From assembly GCA_948466735.1 (NCBI GenBank), contig CAOKBR010000002.1, positions 1-56,546 of the forward strand: a stretch of DNA of 56,546 nucleotides, given 5' to 3'. Within the stretch, counting starts at the first letter, position 1. Every line of letters starts with the position of its first letter. Made by a program: the position numbers and the translations under genes. This stretch comes from an uncultured Mycoplasmatota bacterium. GTDB taxonomy: Bacteria > Bacillota_I > Bacilli_A > RF39 > UBA660. Below are positions 11,429 to 55,528 of this stretch, one piece after another. The notes below the pieces were generated by a model. That model saw only the letters and a program-made list of their open reading frames with translations. It ran no database searches and was not told the DNA's origin.

Positions 11429-11608
11429 TTTTCATCTCTCCTTCCGCCATGATTAATACTAATCATAGTAAATTCACTAGCGACAATAGTATATCAAGAA
11501 AATTAGTGTTTGGCAAGTCAATTTGGAATTTTTTAAAAATTGCTTCTTTTAACAGTTTTTTAAGAAAATTCCTATCCTTATCCAATAATTATATATGAGG
11601 TGAATCAT

Positions 11609-35900: not shown

Positions 35901-36788
35901 TTATTCCACTTGCATAATCTCTAAAATTCTATTTAAATCATTCGCATTAACAAAGTTAATTTCTATTTTTGTTCCCCTAACTTTAACTTTTGTCCCTAAT
36001 TTATCCCCTAATAATTCTTCAACGTAAGCAAATTCATTATTTTTTTCTTTATTAGGAAGGAATTTTTCTTTTTTCTTTTGATAGTTAACCTGTGAAGACA
36101 GTTCTTCTAATTGACGAACATTTAAGCCTGTTTTTACAATTTTTTCTGCTAAATTTTTTACTTTCTCACTATCTTCAATCTTACTTAATACTCTAGCGTG
36201 ACTCATAGTAATTTTATTTTCTATTAGTAAATCTTTAACATCTTCTGGTAAGGTTAGTAAGCCAAGCATATTGGTTACATGGCTTCGACTTTTTCCAATT
36301 CGATTTGCCAATTGTTCTTGTGTAAGGGTTAAATGATCAATCAAACTCTTATATGCCATAGCTTCTTCTAATGGAGATAAATTCTCTCTTTGTAGGTTTT
36401 CTAATAAAGCAATTTCCATCATTTCACTATCAGTAAAATCTTTTACTATAGCAGGTACAGTTGTTAACCCAGCTAATTTACTTGCTTTTACCCGACGTTC
36501 TCCAGCAATAATCTCATAACCTTTAATGCTTTTCTTGGCAATAATGGGACTAAAAACACCATGCTCTTTTATAGAACTTGCTAATTCTTCTAATGCTGTT
36601 TCATCAAATGTCTTCCTTGGCTGGTAAGGATTACTTCTTAATTCATTGATTTCTAATTCCACAACAGCATCTTTTGGAGTCGTCGTAATAATTTTTTCTT
36701 CCAATTTATCATAGTCAATTGGTTCATTATTAAATAATTCTTCCAAACCTCTTCCTAATGCTCTTCTTTTAGTTTCCATTTCTCTCAA
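35901..36788 (-). CDS. spo0J: Chromosome partitioning protein ParB/Spo0J
   Basis: RRALGRGLEELF, GERR (CTP-binding box), HTH region with GKSRSHVTNMLGLL (parS-type Arg), and a C-terminal dimerisation domain. The real start may be the ATG at 36779. Confidence 0.93.
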   Translation of the reverse strand: MREMETKRRALGRGLEELFNNEPIDYDKLEEKIITTTPKDAVVELEINELRSNPYQPRKTFDETALEELASSIKEHGVFSPIIAKKSIKGYEIIAGERRVKASKLAGLTTVPAIVKDFTDSEMMEIALLENLQRENLSPLEEAMAYKSLIDHLTLTQEQLANRIGKSRSHVTNMLGLLTLPEDVKDLLIENKITMSHARVLSKIEDSEKVKNLAEKIVKTGLNVRQLEELSSQVNYQKKKEKFLPNKEKNNEFAYVEELLGDKLGTKVKVRGTKIEINFVNANDLNRILEIMQVE

Positions 36789-37554
36789 TCACTTCCTTTG
36801 CTAAATTTAAGTAGGCTTCTGAACCCCTACTTTTAGGATCATATTCAATGATAGGTAAACCATGCGATGGAGCTTCTGTTAATCGAATTAAACGAGGAAT
36901 TATAGTATTATATACTCGTTCTTTAAAGTATTTTCTAATATCTTCTACCACCTCAAATCCTAAATTTGTACGTGAATCTAGCATGGTTAATAATACACCT
37001 TCTATATCCAAATTTGGATTTAATGTTTTTTGAGCAATCATAATTGTATTTAATAACTGCATAATACCTTCTAGAGCAAAAAATTCACATTGAACAGGAA
37101 TAATAACTGAATCTGATGCACTTAATGCATTAGTTGTAATTAATCCTAATGAAGGTGGACAATCAATGATAATATAATCAAATACACTTTTAGCAGGATA
37201 AAGATGCGCTTTTAATTGGCCTGTCTTAGAAAAAGATGCATCCATTTGTCCTTTTTCCATTAATTCAATGTCTATACCTGCTAAATTAATTGTTGCTGGT
37301 AATAAGTATAAATTATTGCATCGTGTTTTAATAATGGCATCATTTAAACTACTTGTTCCATTTAATACATCATATATACTTTTATCAAAATCTCCTTTAT
37401 TATACCCTACACCAGTAGTAGCATTTCCCTGAGGATCTAAATCTACTAATAACACTTTTTTTCCTAAAACTGCTAAAGATGCGGATAAATTTATGCTAGT
37501 CGTTGTTTTTCCAACTCCACCTTTTTGATTTACTAAAGAAATTATTTTTCCCAT
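36769..37554 (-). CDS. soj: ParA/Soj partitioning ATPase
   Basis: Deviant Walker A NQKGGVGKTTT, 261 aa, immediately upstream of spo0J. Confidence 0.95.
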   Translation of the reverse strand: MGKIISLVNQKGGVGKTTTSINLSASLAVLGKKVLLVDLDPQGNATTGVGYNKGDFDKSIYDVLNGTSSLNDAIIKTRCNNLYLLPATINLAGIDIELMEKGQMDASFSKTGQLKAHLYPAKSVFDYIIIDCPPSLGLITTNALSASDSVIIPVQCEFFALEGIMQLLNTIMIAQKTLNPNLDIEGVLLTMLDSRTNLGFEVVEDIRKYFKERVYNTIIPRLIRLTEAPSHGLPIIEYDPKSRGSEAYLNLAKEVIERNGN

Positions 37555-37641: not shown

Positions 37642-38829
37642 TTAAGAATTTGTCGCTTTATTAATCTTAATTGTAATTTGATATACTCCATCAAGGTCGG
37701 CTTCCTCTTTATCTATACTAAAACCGTAGCTTTCAATACTAGACACTAAGGAACGAACTTGTTCTATGGCAGATTGTAAAGTATTGATGTTTTTCCGTTC
37801 AATGTTAGGTTCAAAATATAGTGCTTCTTGTAACTCTGGTTTAGGATTCATCAAAGAACCAAAGGCAATGTTAGGATCTAATACTTTTTCACTTGATGGA
37901 AGTAAGTCTAGTACTTCAATAGCTTCATCTTGATCAACTTGTACCTCTTGTTCTACTATTTTTCCATCTGGGGTATTTCCAACAAATCGATACTCATTTT
38001 TTTGATTGTTTTCACCTGTTGTTGGAATAGAATCTTGTTTAACAAATTTATTTACCTCTATATCTTTAGTTGTTCCGTCCGTTGTTTTTAATTCTTCTAA
38101 GTTTTGACTAACTTTTTGTTGGGTATTATTAATTTGCTGAATCATATCGTCTAATGTTGATAATTGTTTATTGATAAATTTATTTGTATTTTCCTTACTA
38201 TTTTCTAACTCTTTGCTATTATTTTGAGCGTTCAACATTTTAATTTCAGATTCTAATTCTCTAACTGTCATTCTTGTTGATATAATTCTTTGAAGTAACT
38301 CAATTTGTTTAGCTGGATCACTAACATTCAATAAACTTCTTGCATGCCGTTCAGAAATTTGATCTTTCATTAATGCATCCTGAATTTCTATAGGTAAAGA
38401 CAATAAACGTAATTTATTTGCTACTGAAGATTGGCTTTTTCCCATTGTTTTTGCTAATTCCTCTTGGGTCATCTGATCTAATTCTAAAATCTTTTGGTAT
38501 GTTCTTGCTTCCTCAACAGCACTTAAATCTTTTCTTTGTAAATTTTCAAGAAGTGCAACTTTTGAAGTTTCTTTATCATCTAAATTCCTAACAATAGCTG
38601 GAATCTTTGTCAATCCTGCCATGGCAGATGCCTTATAACGTCTTTCTCCAGCAATAATTTCGTATTTATCACCTATTTTTCTTACAATAATTGGTTGGAT
38701 TACTCCGTGTTCCTTTATTGATGCGGCTAATTCTTTTAAGGCTTTTTCATCAAATACTTCGCGTGGTTGAAATCTATTAGGTATAATCTCATCTAAATAT
38801 AAATTTATTATTTCATTTTCTGAATGCAT
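37642..38829 (-). CDS. noc: Noc-type ParB paralog (nucleoid occlusion protein-like) with a long internal insertion
   Basis: ParB N-domain (IIPNRFQPR, IIAGERRYKA). HTH region with Noc-type residues GKSQSSVANKLRLLSLP...ISERHARSL (compare B. subtilis Noc GKGQSTIANKLRLLKLP...ITERHARAL). C-terminal end ...YQITIKINK resembles Noc ...YIQLTIRIPK. It lies between rsmG and soj as noc does in Bacillus. Confidence 0.85.
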   Translation of the reverse strand: MHSENEIINLYLDEIIPNRFQPREVFDEKALKELAASIKEHGVIQPIIVRKIGDKYEIIAGERRYKASAMAGLTKIPAIVRNLDDKETSKVALLENLQRKDLSAVEEARTYQKILELDQMTQEELAKTMGKSQSSVANKLRLLSLPIEIQDALMKDQISERHARSLLNVSDPAKQIELLQRIISTRMTVRELESEIKMLNAQNNSKELENSKENTNKFINKQLSTLDDMIQQINNTQQKVSQNLEELKTTDGTTKDIEVNKFVKQDSIPTTGENNQKNEYRFVGNTPDGKIVEQEVQVDQDEAIEVLDLLPSSEKVLDPNIAFGSLMNPKPELQEALYFEPNIERKNINTLQSAIEQVRSLVSSIESYGFSIDKEEADLDGVYQITIKINKATNS

Positions 38830-42883: not shown

Positions 42884-42907
42884 AAATTATTTCCCGGGAA
42901 ATAATTT
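42884..42907. promoter_or_regulatory. Noc-binding-site (NBS) consensus inside a 24-bp perfect palindrome
   Basis: AAATTATTTCCCGGGAAATAATTT. The core TATTTCCCGGGAAATA equals the published B. subtilis NBS consensus. It is intergenic between the jag stop and the mnmE start. Confidence 0.7.
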
Positions 42908-45050: not shown

Positions 45051-45278
45051 TTTTCCACAGATTTTTCCACAACGTTTTCCACAGATATTTTTTTTTCACA
45101 GGGTTTTCCACAGGCTTCTTTTTCAATATAAAGCTTATTTTACAACGAATTCAAAAGTTTTCCACAACCTGTGGAAAAGAGTTATCCACATGTGGAAAGA
45201 GTTTTTTTAATTTTCTGTGGAAAACTCATTTTTTCTATATGATTAAAGAGTTTTACCTGTGGAAAACCCTGTGGAAAA
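45051..45278. other. oriC part I: cluster of about 12 DnaA boxes between rpmH and dnaA
   Basis: TTTTCCACA on the plus strand at 45051, 45063, 45075, 45104 and 45158. Perfect TTATCCACA at 45182. Degenerate TTTTTCACA at 45092. Inverted TGTGGAAAA/G at 45170, 45191, 45216, 45258 and 45270. Includes head-to-head pairs TTTTCCACAaccTGTGGAAAA and TTATCCACATGTGGAAAG. Confidence 0.9.
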
Positions 45279-45376
45279 CTTTTTAAAAATTTTTTTACTT
45301 TTTGCTCTTTCTTTTTAATACAAAGTAGGCTACAATAATAGTACTTTTTGATATTTTCGTGAAGGGAAGTGGTAAT

Positions 45377-46741
45377 ATGGATGTAGATAAAATATGGAAA
45401 CAAGCTTTAGAAATAATAAAAAAAGAAATTACTTCCCTCTCATACGATACTTGGTTTAAAGATACGAAATTAAAAGCAATTCGGCAAGGAAAAGCAACGA
45501 TATTAGTCCCAATGATGGTTCATCAAAAGCATTTATATGATAACTATGAAACTTTAATCATTACTACATTAAAAAATATTACTAATGACACTTATGAACT
45601 TACTTATTTACTGGAAGATGAAGTAATAGAAGAGAAACCTACTGAAAATAAAGACCCAACAGTAGAAATTAAAGAAACAATTACGCTAGAAGAAAAAAAC
45701 AATATTAACAAAAATTATACGTTTGACAATTTTATCGTGGGAAACAGTAATAAATTTGCACATGCTGCTGCTTTATCAGTAGCCGAAAATCCAGGAAAAA
45801 TGTACAATCCATTATTTATATATGGAAATAGTGGACTAGGAAAAACACATTTAATGCATGCCATTGGAAATTATATTATTGAAAACACCGATAAAAAAGT
45901 TTTATATGTTACAAGTGATCAATTCATACAAGACTTTATTAGTCTTAATAAAAAAGATACTAGTGGTAGTAATCTTAATTATATAGATTATTTTAAAAAT
46001 AAGTATCGAAATGTGGACGTCCTCATTATTGATGATATTCAATTTTTAGGCGGTGCGACACAAACACAACAAGAATTTTTCCACACCTTTAACACATTAT
46101 ATAGTGATAGTAAGCAAATTATCATTTCATCCGATCGTTCTCCAGATGATCTAAGACTTTTAGAGGAACGACTAAGAACAAGATTTTGTTGGGGATTAAC
46201 CGTGGACATTTTTCCACCAGATTTTAGCTTGCGAATTGCTATTTTAAAAAAGAAAATATCCGCAGGAAATATTGAAAAAGAAATTCCTGATGATGTTATT
46301 GAATACATTGCATCTAATATGGCAAGTGATGTCCGACAACTAGAAGGCTCAATCACTAGATTAATTGCGTATTCCACAATTATGGGAGGTAGCGAAATTA
46401 CTTTAGATTTAGCCATTGAAGCACTTACTGATTATATTAATAAAGGAGTTAGCGAAAAAGATGATGTTAGAAAAATTCAAAAAACTGTTGCCGAATACTT
46501 TCAAATTTCGCTAGAAGATATTAGGTCGAAAAAACGAAGTTCTGCAATTTCCTTTCCTAGACAAATTGCCATGTACCTGTGTAGAAAGTTAATTAATGAG
46601 TCATATCCTAAAATAGGAACAGAATTTGGTGGTAAAGATCATTCTACTATAATGTACTCTTGTGAAAAAATAGAAAAAGAAATAAAAAACAATAAAAATT
46701 TACAAAAAATTATTGAAAAAATCGAGGCCGATTTAAAATAG
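45377..46741 (+). CDS. dnaA: Chromosomal replication initiator DnaA
   Basis: AAA+ motifs GNSGLGKTHL and LIIDDIQF, and the domain IV DNA-binding region (FGGKDHSTIMYSCEKI). Start taken at the ATG at 45377 (MDVDKIWKQALE); the ORF track starts at the GTG at 45359. Confidence 0.97.
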   Translation: MDVDKIWKQALEIIKKEITSLSYDTWFKDTKLKAIRQGKATILVPMMVHQKHLYDNYETLIITTLKNITNDTYELTYLLEDEVIEEKPTENKDPTVEIKETITLEEKNNINKNYTFDNFIVGNSNKFAHAAALSVAENPGKMYNPLFIYGNSGLGKTHLMHAIGNYIIENTDKKVLYVTSDQFIQDFISLNKKDTSGSNLNYIDYFKNKYRNVDVLIIDDIQFLGGATQTQQEFFHTFNTLYSDSKQIIISSDRSPDDLRLLEERLRTRFCWGLTVDIFPPDFSLRIAILKKKISAGNIEKEIPDDVIEYIASNMASDVRQLEGSITRLIAYSTIMGGSEITLDLAIEALTDYINKGVSEKDDVRKIQKTVAEYFQISLEDIRSKKRSSAISFPRQIAMYLCRKLINESYPKIGTEFGGKDHSTIMYSCEKIEKEIKNNKNLQKIIEKIEADLK

Positions 46742-46742
46742 T

Positions 46743-46874
46743 TGTGGAAAACTCAAAAGTTTTCCACAGGTTTTCCACAGGTTCTAATGAATATTTTACC
46801 TATATTCTATAAGGTTTTAAAAAGTTTTCCACAGTTTTCCACAGTAATAATAATAATAATATATATAATAATAA
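46743..46874. other. oriC part II: 5 DnaA boxes plus (TAA)n DnaA-trio-like/AT-rich unwinding element between dnaA and dnaN
   Basis: TGTGGAAAA at 46743. TTTTCCACA at 46760, 46771, 46825 and 46835. These are followed directly by TAATAATAATAATAATATATATAATAATAA (46845-46874), which is 100% A/T with in-phase TAA triplets. Confidence 0.8.
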
Positions 46875-48156: not shown

Positions 48157-48603
48157 ATGGATTCTTACGAAATTAATCCAAGTACATTGGCGATAATTCC
48201 TAACGGTGAAGAAAAGACAAAAGTTATTGAAAAAAATAAAGAATATATTGTTGAATCGTCTGCTTTTGCCGTTATGGAGAAGAGTTGTGAGTATTTTGGA
48301 AGTTCTTATGAAGGAAGAGTAAAAGGTACTAAGGCTGCTCTTGGAATTACTTATAAGCCTCCAATTGTAATTGAGGAGAGTAGAGACATTATTTTTTTTC
48401 CTACGTCATCACCGACTTCAACAAGTTGCAGTTGGATAAGTTTAAAAAACATAAAATCTTATAAACGAATACCAGGTGGAGTAAAAATTATATTTGAAAA
48501 TGATAAAGAGGCTATATTTCCTGTTTCTTTAGAATCATTTGAAAATCAGTTATATCGGGCAACTAGATTAGAAAGCGTATTAAGAAAACGTAGAATTGAT
48601 TAG
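48157..48603 (+). CDS. comK: ComK-family competence transcription factor homolog (short, 148 aa)
   Basis: Matches B. subtilis ComK blocks: SYEINPSTLAIIP (SYEVNGATIAVLP), SCEYFGSSYEGRVKGT (SCRFFGSSYAGRKAGT), YKPPIVI..IIFFPTSSPTSTSCSWIS (HKPPIMV..IFLFPTLSSTRPQCGWIS) and SFENQLYRA (SFENQVYRT). GGAGG RBS present. Confidence 0.85.
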   Translation: MDSYEINPSTLAIIPNGEEKTKVIEKNKEYIVESSAFAVMEKSCEYFGSSYEGRVKGTKAALGITYKPPIVIEESRDIIFFPTSSPTSTSCSWISLKNIKSYKRIPGGVKIIFENDKEAIFPVSLESFENQLYRATRLESVLRKRRID

Positions 48604-51827: not shown

Positions 51828-54281
51828 TTGGATAGATTAGAAAAAAATAATATTGTCAATGAAGTTAAAGATTCCTTTATGGAATATTCGATGAGTGTTA
51901 TTATTGCCCGTGCATTGCCAGATTTAAGAGATGGGTTAAAGCCAGTTCATCGTAGAATTTTGTATTCTATGTATGAATCTAGTTATACGCCTGATAAACC
52001 GCATAAGAAAAGTGCTAGAATTGTCGGAGATGTTATGGGTAAATATCATCCACACGGAGATTCTAGTATTTATGAAGCTATGGTAAGAATGGCACAAGAT
52101 TTTTCTTATCGTTATATGTTAGTAGACGGTCACGGAAACTTTGGTAATATAGAGGGTTACGGTGCTGCTGCTATGCGTTATACTGAATCTAGATTATCTA
52201 AAATTTCATTAGAATTATTGAGAAATATTAATAAAAATACGGTGGATTTTGTTCCTAACTTTGATGATAGTGAAAAAGAACCCGCTATTTTGCCATCACG
52301 TTTCCCCAATATTTTAGTAAATGGTACAACAGGTATTGCAGTAGGAATGGCAACTAATATTCCCCCTCATAATTTAGGTGAGGTAATTGATGGGTGTGTC
52401 GCTTATATTGATAATCCAAATATTGATTTAAGTGGATTAATGCAATATATCAAAGGACCTGACTTTCCAACAGGAGCTACTATTTTAGGTAATAGTGGAA
52501 TAAGGAAGGCTTATGAAACAGGTCGTGGAAGCATTACGATTCGTAGTAAGGCACAAATTGAGGAAAAAAATGGTAAGCAATATATCATCATTGATGAAGT
52601 TCCTTATGGTGTTAATACGCAAGAATTAAAAAATAAAGTAGCAGAATTAGTGCATAATAAAACAATAGATGGAATTGCTGATTATCATTCCGATTTAAAA
52701 AATGGTATAAAGATAACAATTACATTGAAAAAAGATGCGAATGCTCAGGTTATTTTAAATCAATTATATAAGCACACTTCTTTGCAAATTTCTTATGGTA
52801 TTATTTTCTTAATGTTAGATCAAGGTGTTCCTAAGACACTGGGTTTAAAAGATATTATTAGTAAATATATTGATTATCAAAAAGAAATAATTATAAGAAG
52901 AGTTCGTTTTGATTTAGAAAATGCAGAGAAAAGGGTACATATTTTAGAAGGTTTAAAGATAGCGTTAGATCATATTGACGCGGTAATAAAACTAATTCGT
53001 GGTTCAAAATCTGATGAAGAAGCAAAAACGGGATTAATGAGTCAATTTGCTTTAACAGAAATTCAGGCAAATTCTATTCTTGAAATGAGATTACGTCGTT
53101 TAACAGGTCTAGAACGCGAAAAAATTGAAAATGAATTAAATGAGTTATTAAAGTTAATTGACGAGTTAAGAGGGATTTTAGCAAGCAATGCTAAAGTATT
53201 AGATATTATTCGAACAGAATTATTAGAGATAAAAGATAAGTATGGTGATGAGAGAAGAACAGATATTGATATGACAGCTATAGAATATATTGAGGATGAA
53301 TCATTGATTCCAAAGGAAGATATTATTATTTCTCTTACAAGTAAAGGTTATATAAAACGGTTGCGCTCTGATACATATCGTACACAAAATCGTGGTGGAG
53401 TTGGAGTTAAAGGAATGACTACCAACGAAGAGGATTATGTAGATAAACTAATTTTAGCAAAAACTCATGATTATATATTATTCTTTTCCGATAAAGGAAA
53501 AGTATATAGGATTAAGGGATATGAAATTCCTGAATACAATCGTCAATCAAAGGGTTTACCTTTAATTAATTTGCTTTCTTTAGAAAAAGATGAAAGAATA
53601 AATTCAGTAATCTCAATAGATAAAAGCGAAGACACGAACAAACATTTGGTTTTTGTAACAAAAAAAGGTATTATTAAGAGAACATCTTTAACTGAATTTG
53701 ATAATATAAGAAATAATGGAAAGATAGCAATTATATTAAAAGAACAAGATAAGTTAATAGATGTTATGATTACAGACGGAACTAGTGAAATTGTTATTGG
53801 CGCTAGCAATGGCAGAATGGTGAGATTCTCTGAAAAAGAAATTAGAACAATGGGAAGAACAACTTCTGGTGTAAAAGGAATCGATTTAGACGGTAGTATA
53901 GTTGTTGGCGCTGGTACTGTAAATGAAAGTTCACAAATATTAGTTGTAACTAGAAAGGGTTATGGTAAAAGAACAGCAATAAATGAGTATAGATTGACTC
54001 ATCGTGGAAGTAAAGGTGTAAAAACTTTAAATGTCACTGATAAAAATGGAGACTTAATTGCTTTAAGAAGTGTAACTGGAGAAGAAAAAGTTATTATTGG
54101 TACTAATAACGGAATTATGATCAAAATGCCATTACAACAAATTTCAGTATTAGGAAGATCAACGCAAGGAACGAGATTAATCAATTTAAAAGAGCAACAA
54201 GAAGTAACCACTTTAGCTATTGTTAATCAAGAATATGATGAAGATGTAGATACAGAAGAGGTTGCAGTACAAGAAAATTAA
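51828..54281 (+). CDS. gyrA: DNA gyrase subunit A
   Basis: TTG start with [32 protein letters not shown], the catalytic AAMRYTE and a GyrA-box/beta-pinwheel C-terminal domain. Confidence 0.98.
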
Positions 54282-54284
54282 TTA

Positions 54285-54300
54285 TGTTTCACGTGAAACA
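54285..54300. promoter_or_regulatory. parS site 1 (perfect TGTTTCACGTGAAACA)
   Basis: Exact 16-bp ParB/Spo0J consensus within the 20-bp palindrome 54283-54302. It begins 4 nt after the gyrA stop. Confidence 0.85.
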
Positions 54301-54310
54301 TATAAGTAAA

Positions 54311-54339
54311 AAGAATAAATTTAAAATTTATTCTTTTTT
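54311..54339 (+). terminator. Terminator after gyrA
   Basis: AAGAATAAAT-ttaaa-ATTTATTCTT followed by TTTT. The stem is entirely AT-rich, hence moderate confidence. Confidence 0.5.
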
Positions 54340-54459
54340 ATTTATTATATTAATACATGAACTTTTGACAAAAACAGAATATTGAAAAAATTTTAAATAA
54401 TATGAAGTATAAAAAATATCAATATCTATATGTGAATTTTATTATAAATAAGTATAGTA

Positions 54460-54475
54460 TGTTTCACGTGAAACA
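54460..54475. promoter_or_regulatory. parS site 2 (perfect TGTTTCACGTGAAACA)
   Basis: Within the 20-bp palindrome 54458-54477. Confidence 0.85.
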
Positions 54476-54651
54476 TAAAAGCAAATAAAAGAAATTCAAT
54501 TTCAATTGTTAAATCATAAAGCAAGCATACGCTGTAGGTATCATAAAAATAAGTAATTTAATAAATTGGTAAAGTATGATTAAAAGCACATTAAAAAGGT
54601 AATCTTACAAAGTACAATATGAATGTACATTTTTACATAAATAAGTTTATA

Positions 54652-54667
54652 TGTTTCACGTGAAACA
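54652..54667. promoter_or_regulatory. parS site 3 (perfect TGTTTCACGTGAAACA)
   Basis: Within the 26-bp palindrome 54647-54672 (TTATATGTTTCACGTGAAACATATAA). Confidence 0.85.
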
Positions 54668-54835
54668 TATAATAAGAAATTGCTTTTATTTTAACTATAT
54701 ATTATATATTTAGAACGCGTATATTATATGTAAGCATTAAACTAATAAAAAAACAAGTTTTCAATAAACATGATAGAAATTATAAAAAAATATATTGTAA
54801 ATATGCAAGGAATTTAAATATAAATGGATTTTCTA

Positions 54836-54851
54836 TGTTTCACGTGAAACA
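54836..54851. promoter_or_regulatory. parS site 4 (perfect TGTTTCACGTGAAACA)
   Basis: Within the 22-bp palindrome 54833-54854, about 20 nt upstream of the -35 of the SRP RNA promoter. Confidence 0.85.
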
Positions 54852-54871
54852 TAGTTTTATTAGTTAAAAAG

Positions 54872-54900
54872 TTGCAATAAATATTTAGTAATGATATAAT
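54872..54900 (+). promoter_or_regulatory. Sigma-A promoter of the SRP RNA gene
   Basis: TTGCAA (54872-54877), a 17-nt spacer ending in TGa, then TATAAT (54895-54900). The predicted transcription start is near 54907. Confidence 0.7.
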
Positions 54901-54906
54901 GAAAAC

Positions 54907-54985
54907 GTGCAATGATATTTATTGGAAACAGGTCAGGATTGGAAAATAGCAGCCTTAACAGTTAATGTCATGTGCACTTTTTATT
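54907..54985 (+). ncRNA. ffs: Small (4.5S-type) signal recognition particle RNA
   Basis: CAGGUCAGGAUUGGAAAAUAGCAGCCUUAA matches the universal domain IV of E. coli 4.5S, CAGGUCAGGUCCGGAAGGAAGCAGCCAAGG: GGAA tetraloop, a compensatory AUU/AAU stem and the conserved AGCAGC loop. The long closing helix GUGCAAUGAU.../...GUCAUGUGCAC is followed by UUUUUAUUUU. The 3' end is approximate. Confidence 0.85.
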
Positions 54986-55053
54986 TTAAATTTTTATAAT
55001 AGCAAACTAAAGTTCGCTATTGCAAAATTTGGGCAAAATATAATGGAGATATT

Positions 55054-55500
55054 ATGGAAGAAAACTATATGAGAATTGCTTTGGAAGAAGCAAAACAAGC
55101 TTTTAGAGAAAATGAAGTACCTATTGGAGCAGTACTAGTGGATTCTAATGGTAAAATTTTATCTAAAAATTATAACAGAAAAGAGCAAAATAAATGCTGT
55201 ATAGAGCATGCGGAAATGTTAGTTATTCAAGAAGCTTCAAAAATAAAGAATAATTGGAGATTAAATAATTGTTCTTTATACGTAACAGTAGAACCATGTC
55301 CTATGTGTATGAGTGCAATAAAACAATCAAGAATTAGCAAAGTTTACTTTGGATGTAGCAATAAAAATGTTTTAGAATCACAAATTTCGGAGGATATAGC
55401 TAAATTATCAGATGCCAATATTCCTGTAGAACTTTATCATGGTATATTGGAAGACGAATGTAAAAAAATATTGAGTTTATTTTTTGATCAAAAAAGATAA
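55054..55500 (+). CDS. tadA: tRNA-specific adenosine deaminase TadA
   Basis: CDA fold zinc motifs HAEMLVI and PCPMCMSAI, 148 aa. Confidence 0.93.
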   Translation: MEENYMRIALEEAKQAFRENEVPIGAVLVDSNGKILSKNYNRKEQNKCCIEHAEMLVIQEASKIKNNWRLNNCSLYVTVEPCPMCMSAIKQSRISKVYFGCSNKNVLESQISEDIAKLSDANIPVELYHGILEDECKKILSLFFDQKR

Positions 55501-55528
55501 AAAATTATTTCCCGGGAAATAATTTTTT
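55499..55528. promoter_or_regulatory. Second NBS-consensus palindrome (30-bp perfect palindrome)
   Basis: AAAAAATTATTTCCCGGGAAATAATTTTTT. The central 24 bp are identical to the copy at 42884-42907. It overlaps the tadA stop codon. Confidence 0.7.

Follow-up and report, generated by a model that had tools for sequence, protein, structure and literature searches.

Four perfect parS sites between gyrA and the SRP RNA gene form a probable origin-proximal centromere in an uncultured low-GC bacterium

The window analysed here is a stretch of 56,546 bp. It contains the order gyrA, an array of parS sites, the small SRP RNA gene (ffs) and tadA. The array occupies a non-coding gap between the first gene and the SRP RNA gene, and the locus is made up of the following features:

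51828–54281, + strand: gyrA, left border of the gap (NF004043, 1149 bits)
54282–54897, no strand: non-coding gap with the array, 616 bp, gyrA to SRP RNA
54285–54300, no strand: parS-1, perfect 16-mer within a 20-bp palindrome (54283–54302), starting 4 nt past the gyrA stop codon
54308–54338, + strand: AT-rich perfect hairpin with 15-nt arms and a 1-nt loop, followed by a T run, putative gyrA terminator
54460–54475, no strand: parS-2, perfect 16-mer within a 20-bp palindrome (54458–54477)
54652–54667, no strand: parS-3, perfect 16-mer within a 26-bp palindrome (54647–54672)
54836–54851, no strand: parS-4, perfect 16-mer within a 22-bp palindrome (54833–54854), ending 20 nt before the -35 element of the SRP RNA promoter
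54872–54900, + strand: promoter-like TTGCAA-17-TATAAT with an upstream TG (extended -10), positioned to drive the SRP RNA gene
54898–54988, + strand: small SRP RNA gene (ffs), right border of the gap (Rfam RF00169, 57 bits)
55054–55500, + strand: tadA (profile match)

The exact 16-mer TGTTTCACGTGAAACA occurs four times, at 54285, 54460, 54652 and 54836. The copies are spaced by 175, 192 and 184 bp and form a block of 567 bp. All four match the parS consensus TGTTNCACGTGAAACA perfectly and have TATGTTTCACGTGAAACATA in common. The initial annotation had reported these positions and spacings, together with perfect palindromes of 20–26 bp around each copy. Both observations are reproduced, the palindromes measuring 20, 20, 26 and 22 bp. 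No further match with up to 2 mismatches is present elsewhere in the window, and the extra 10 kb covered by contig L001 adds none, so that ~66 kb around oriC were scanned altogether. Dinucleotide shuffles of the window contained 0.04 matches on average, and four were reached in 0 of 100. The same four sites with the same spacing are found in L001 and L004, which come from independent metagenome assemblies and share 99.9% identity over the gap, and three of the four are present in L002, whose contig begins within the gap. Recovery from independent assemblies shows that the array is no assembly artefact. The strain contigs L001–L005 are near-identical and carry no evolutionary information.

The gap between gyrA and the SRP RNA gene had been given as ~770 bp. 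That figure holds for the distance from gyrA to tadA (772 bp), and the distance to the SRP RNA gene is 616 bp. The gap had been described as free of ORFs of at least 60 aa, and in fact no ORF longer than 35 aa overlaps it. An Rfam search of the gap returns the SRP RNA only. The spacers have a GC content of 0.12–0.22, compared to ~0.29 for the window. If the hairpin at 54308–54338 is the gyrA terminator, parS-1 falls within the gyrA 3′ UTR. The fourth site had been said to abut the SRP RNA promoter, and it indeed ends 20 nt before the TTGCAA-17-TGnTATAAT element. The gap contains 10 promoter-like sites versus 8.7 ± 3.1 in shuffles. As this is no enrichment, a hidden transcription unit is unsupported. 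Owing to the T-rich tail behind it, parS-4 is flagged by a consensus scan as resembling a terminator. The idea that the parS sites are intrinsic terminators was rejected, since the flag is raised at this site alone and sites 1–3 have no T tail. The 5′ end of the Rfam match to the SRP RNA (54898) overlaps the predicted -10 hexamer (54895–54900). This means that the RNA really starts a few nucleotides further downstream or that the promoter is miscalled.

The array is located in the origin region of a chromosome. The sign of the GC skew switches at ~45 kb, and dnaA (45359–46741) is flanked by a DnaA-box cluster on either side:

45051–45278, no strand: DnaA-box cluster upstream of dnaA, left half of oriC, 11 boxes with at most 1 mismatch
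46743–46843, no strand: DnaA-box cluster between dnaA and dnaN, right half of oriC, 5 boxes

The whole window contains 56 DnaA boxes versus 20 ± 4.6 expected. The two dense clusters around dnaA place the array 7.5–9.8 kb to the right of a bipartite oriC. The core genes around the array (dnaA, dnaN, recF, gyrB and gyrA) show that the setting is chromosomal. The boxes of oriC are nearly all of the variant TTTTCCACA and not TTATCCACA, and several are 12 bp apart from start to start. Between dnaN and recF, a gene for a ComK-family protein is inserted (48157–48603, + strand; PF06338, 157 bits), an insertion also seen in the relatives L017, L108, L112, L118 and L120. The window has one other long non-coding stretch, and in it lies an L31-Firmicutes ribosomal-protein leader at 11438–11468 on the - strand (RF03156, 34.6 bits, slightly over the gathering score).

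Three genes to the left of oriC encode two ParB-family proteins and a ParA:

35901–36788, - strand: ParB/Spo0J, 295 aa, predicted reader of the array (ParB_N and HTH_ParB domains, GERR CTP motif)
36769–37554, - strand: ParA/Soj ATPase (profile match), adjacent to parB
37642–38829, - strand: Noc-type ParB paralogue, 395 aa (residues Q-K-S-R; best matches are Noc structures)

The parAB genes are ~17 kb from the array, and a window scan with up to 2 mismatches finds no parS in or near them. The best PDB match of the 295-aa protein is B. subtilis Spo0J (6SDK, E 2e-68). We assessed its specificity residues following Jalal et al. 2020 (PMC7383237). Positions 173/179/184/201 read R-M-T-S, and judged by these residues the protein is a ParB of parS-type specificity. 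The initial annotation had paired the parS consensus with a matching parA-parB operon, and this pairing is confirmed by the perfect 16-mers and the genes at 36769–37554 and 35901–36788. Gly201 was described as invariant among natural ParBs, and in one-hybrid selection small polar residues at this position, Ser included, were tolerated for parS binding, Ser201 also being frequent among the selected dual-specificity variants (PMC7383237). Among the closest 120 ParB homologues, 75 have Ser and 45 have Gly at position 201, and all have Arg173. The frequent occurrence of Ser201 qualifies the published claim of invariance.

The Noc-type paralogue scores 295 bits against TIGR04285, under the cut-off of 315 bits. 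Its longest ORF begins ~25 residues later than Noc of B. subtilis or Geobacillus, and the protein would therefore lack the amphipathic helix that targets Noc to the membrane at its N terminus. At the C terminus it is extended by ~190 aa that match no Pfam family. The residues that read the Noc-binding site (NBS) in Noc-type proteins are Q173/K179/K184/R201 (PMC7383237), and the NBS core sequence used here agrees with PMC8429893. Perfect 14-bp NBS (ATTTCCCGGGAAAT) occur twice in the window, at 42889–42902 and 55507–55520, versus 0.22 expected. The site at 55507 directly follows the tadA stop. No NBS-like site with up to 2 mismatches is present in the gyrA-tadA gap of the window, and the four array sites were rejected as NBS, their sequence being that of parS.

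Taken together, the locus combines a 16-bp palindrome, a location in the origin domain, a ParB of parS type with its ParA, and, as described below, conservation of the sites only. We estimate with a probability of about 85% that the four sites constitute the origin-proximal chromosomal centromere of a Bacilli/Mollicutes-like gut bacterium with low GC content and a small genome. By analogy with characterised systems, dimers of the 295-aa ParB would recognise every parS through the helix-turn-helix, bind CTP, close as clamps and slide to the flanking DNA. Four perfect sites within 567 bp would multiply clamp loading and give rise to one dense partition complex near oriC. The complex would be segregated by ParA (36769–37554) and, as in related systems, might also load SMC. 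The AT-rich gap may provide a platform with few roadblocks for the sliding clamps, because, with the exception of the gyrA 3′ end, it is free of ORFs and has no more promoter-like sites than expected by chance.

The reading as a multi-site pad for ParB loading draws on loading and clustering results obtained elsewhere. More than one parS is found near oriC in most species (PMC7022226). In vitro, more parS sites lead to a higher rate of ParB clamp loading and to a more stable, force-resistant condensation, although one site is enough in vivo (PMC8299390). In Caulobacter, clustering was argued to increase the local ParB density, and new sites are tolerated best beside the existing cluster (PMC5815017).

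To place the array among other genomes, we searched 185,579 species, each represented by one genome, for pairs of perfect parS sites 150–180 nt apart, which yielded at least 120 loci. As the loci were chosen for having one parS pair of one spacing class, the counts given here are not frequencies. The matches listed include Bacillota, Actinomycetota, Pseudomonadota, Planctomycetota, Patescibacteria, Spirochaetota and other phyla. Of the 120 listed, 90 contain at least 3 perfect parS in the sequence retrieved around the pair, 54 contain at least 4 and one contains 12. The array lies near parA, parB, rsmG, mnmG, mnmE, yidC or dnaA in 75 of the 120 and shares the gyrA-tadA position of the window in 23. 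Dense parS arrays are common across bacteria, and the array of the window is ordinary in kind.

All 23 syntenic genomes among the matches listed have a low GC content (mean 0.27), and their labels read uncultured Bacilli, Firmicutes, Mollicutes or Mycoplasma. Their GyrA is 51–80% identical to that of the window. In 19 of 20 syntenic relatives among these matches, the array is followed by the SRP RNA gene and then by tadA. A second sample consisted of metagenome contigs picked by GyrA similarity alone. Most of its low-GC members have parS and/or NBS directly after gyrA, and the four more distant relatives (GC at least 0.35) with enough downstream sequence have neither there. The result indicates that a gyrA-proximal array is a clade-level character.

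Within the gap, conservation is confined to the sites. When the gap is aligned to that of L123 and L060, the closest two relatives (GyrA 80% and 78% identical), nothing but the parS sites and the SRP RNA is conserved, and the spacers do not align. The 16-mer is preceded by A in 100% and followed by T in 97% of 99 gap sites of the clade. A whole-locus recount over 100 clade sites gave A at -1 in 99% and T at +1 in 98%, compared to 53–72% in other taxa. This makes the 18-bp palindrome ATGTTTCACGTGAAACAT the effective site in these bacteria.

The initial annotation had also proposed a duplicated unit of ~180 bp. Tandem Repeats Finder detects no unit near 180 bp in 54000–55200, and when the three complete spacers are aligned locally in either orientation, their scores are at shuffle level. 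The alignment test has power, because it is strongly positive in L024, L132 and L140, where the observed score was reached in 0 of 200 shuffles, pointing to recent tandem duplications in these relatives. What stands of the proposed unit is a marginal similarity of short flanks. In a strict in-register test, sites 1 and 2 are alike downstream (20/30, p=0.0006, uncorrected for 24 tests). The upstream flanks of sites 2 and 3 (ATAAATAAGT) agree at 21/27 positions with a 1-nt shift, and this offset is the reason that the in-register test missed them. The spacing is even, with a CV of 0.038 (P=0.0024 under random placement of the two inner sites), and only 2 of 25 arrays in relatives (L024 and L140) are equally even. 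No general spacing rule emerged: in the sample picked by GyrA similarity alone, the distance from one parS to the next varies between 45 and 802 bp and shows no mode at 180.

An origin of the array by old tandem duplication is plausible, because the spacing is even and relatives contain clear tandem duplications. Since whole-spacer similarity stands at shuffle level, we infer such a duplication in the window rather than observe it. The duplication would have happened long ago, after which selection may have kept the 18–20-bp palindromes alone and the spacers drifted.

The number and even spacing of the sites might have no function. In this case the sites are real parS, one of them would do, and the others persist as neutral leftovers of a slipped or tandem duplication. 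One parS is enough in C. glutamicum, P. aeruginosa and others, so four may not be needed and their number may be neutral. The same gap contains anything from 2 to 9 perfect parS spaced by 38–386 bp in the syntenic genomes among the matches listed, and the recent duplications in relatives show how copies can arise. However, all four copies are still perfect amid spacers diverged to shuffle level, which argues for selection on each copy. Perfect sites are mostly retained in the relatives as well, and multi-site arrays recur in many phyla. We regard a functionless multiplicity as rather unlikely.

A regulatory role is improbable. The array, or at least site 4, could act mainly as an operator from which bound or spreading ParB tunes the SRP RNA and perhaps the 3′ end of gyrA. 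The 20 nt between parS-4 and the -35 hexamer are suggestive. In 15 of 20 loci (19 syntenic relatives and the window) the nearest parS ends 26–73 nt before the SRP RNA start, and in several it touches the -35 element. Effects of ParB on neighbouring promoters are reported for P. aeruginosa and S. pneumoniae. On the other hand, three of the four sites are 200–600 bp away from any candidate promoter, the nearest parS is 106–252 nt off in some relatives, and the closeness may merely reflect the filling of a short gap. In B. subtilis, the loss of Spo0J leaves the expression of parS-adjacent genes unchanged (PMC7022226). Regulation stays a minor explanation.

That the palindromes are not ParB sites at all, and instead a REP/MITE-like repeat, sites of another protein or RNA hairpins and terminators, is very hard to maintain: site 4 does look like a terminator and each site could form an 8–13-bp hairpin if transcribed, but the T-rich tail is found at site 4 alone, 16/16 positions are identical to the pan-bacterial parS, a parS-type ParB gene is close by, and the sequence is invariant without covariation, which fits protein-DNA recognition and not RNA structure. 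A dispersed repeat was rejected, as no copy occurs outside the 567-bp block in 56.5 kb of the window and 10 kb of L001, and almost none outside the gap in relatives.

The centromere reading can be compared to characterised partition loci. Several sites in a short non-coding block recall plasmid centromeres such as F sopC, P1 parS and the type Ib iteron arrays, and the arrangement had been considered unusual and plasmid-like. Plasmid centromeres are direct-repeat units that adjoin their own parAB on a plasmid. Unlike them, the array of the window has no repeat unit, a chromosomal consensus and chromosomal core genes on both sides, and it lies 17 kb from parAB. A plasmid-type centromere was rejected on these grounds, and the view of the arrangement as unusual does not hold, given that dense arrays are widespread across phyla and the gyrA-tadA position is shared by the clade.

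The consensus is identical to that of the Spo0J/parS system of Bacillus subtilis, whose Spo0J is also the best match of the ParB in the window. The genes rsmG, noc, soj and spo0J around oriC are the standard Firmicute set. In B. subtilis, parS sites are often located within genes, spo0J among them. In contrast, the parAB region of the window is devoid of parS, and all sites are together after gyrA. The strongest parS sites of B. subtilis are 5–39 kb apart (PMC5815017).

Caulobacter crescentus likewise has several parS clustered near ori. Its cluster is ~8 kb from ori, with the five strongest sites within 5 kb and two strong ones within 260 bp (Tran et al. 2018, PMC5815017). These sites are degenerate, bind with varying affinity and are found within or adjoining genes beside parAB, whereas the window has four identical perfect sites in a non-coding gap 17 kb from parAB, at a greater density (4 in 567 bp). 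In Corynebacterium glutamicum, parS1–10 are ten B. subtilis-like 16-bp sites, 9 of 10 intergenic, in one origin-proximal cluster (Boehm et al. 2020, PMC7083940). ParB binding to this cluster was detected by ChIP-seq, and it is found at the tip of the SMC-dependent chromosome fold (PMC7083940). It is 35 kb wide and 73 kb from oriC, compared to 0.57 kb and 7.5–9.8 kb for the array of the window.

Dense arrays beside parAB or rsmG in other phyla (for example L020, L102 and L030) are alike in structure, with 3–12 perfect 16-mers in intergenic stretches that measure from a few hundred bp up to ~2 kb. Unlike these, the clade of the window has its array in the gyrA-ffs gap, across oriC; the array has moved there. 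The locus differs from the model systems in that its sites are denser, occupy a non-coding block of their own and follow gyrA instead of lying beside parAB.

In many relatives the gap contains sites for both ParB paralogues. parS and NBS are interleaved between gyrA and tadA in 9 of the 23 syntenic genomes among the matches listed and in many metagenome loci. The relatives concerned include L024, L038, L060, L093, L101, L120, L123, L126, L130, L132, L134, L140 and L161, and strict alternation is frequent. With P for parS and N for NBS, the site order is PNPNPNPP in L024, PNPNPNPNP in L132 and L140, and PNPNPNNNPNP in L161. Overall, 69 transitions between parS and NBS are observed versus 55.1 ± 4.4 after permutation, a value reached in 5 of 2000 permutations. 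The excess of alternation is largely due to tandem duplication of parS+NBS units. We found no report of composite parS/NBS arrays in the searchable literature, which is weak negative evidence.

We tentatively suggest that the gyrA-ffs gap might be a dedicated landing pad of the clade for two paralogous CTP-dependent clamps, ParB and Noc. The window would then represent a ParB-only variant whose NBS has moved to 55507, just past tadA. Should both clamps load next to each other, a single locus could serve the segregation of the origin region through ParB, ParA and SMC as well as its handling by Noc. The interleaved arrays offer a natural system to study how two related sliding clamps share DNA.

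For the uncultured small-genome gut lineage, the array marks a predicted functional centromere and supports the oriC call, which is of use in annotation, in orienting MAG assemblies and in interpreting Hi-C data. In a wider view, the survey shows that perfect parS often occur in nature as very dense arrays (3–12 sites in 0.2–2 kb), which expand by tandem duplication. Their density far exceeds that in the model organisms behind the current models of ParB loading and spreading.

Several loci of the survey are of interest in themselves. An Oscillospiraceae MAG (L102, 1208–3086) contains 12 perfect parS in 1.9 kb. The arrays of a Lachnospiraceae genome (L020, 1014–1353) and of L107 (598–769) have periods of 46–47 bp and 39 bp, respectively, and a Paceibacterota genome (L030, 1473–1906) has a repeated 175-bp unit of three sites. 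Two labels appear to result from mis-binning. L016, labelled Nitrosopumilus sp. (GC 0.63), carries a bacterial mnmG-rsmG-parA-parB region with parS despite its archaeal label, and L060, labelled Muribaculaceae, contains a low-GC recF-gyrB-gyrA-parS-ffs-tadA block of Bacilli type.
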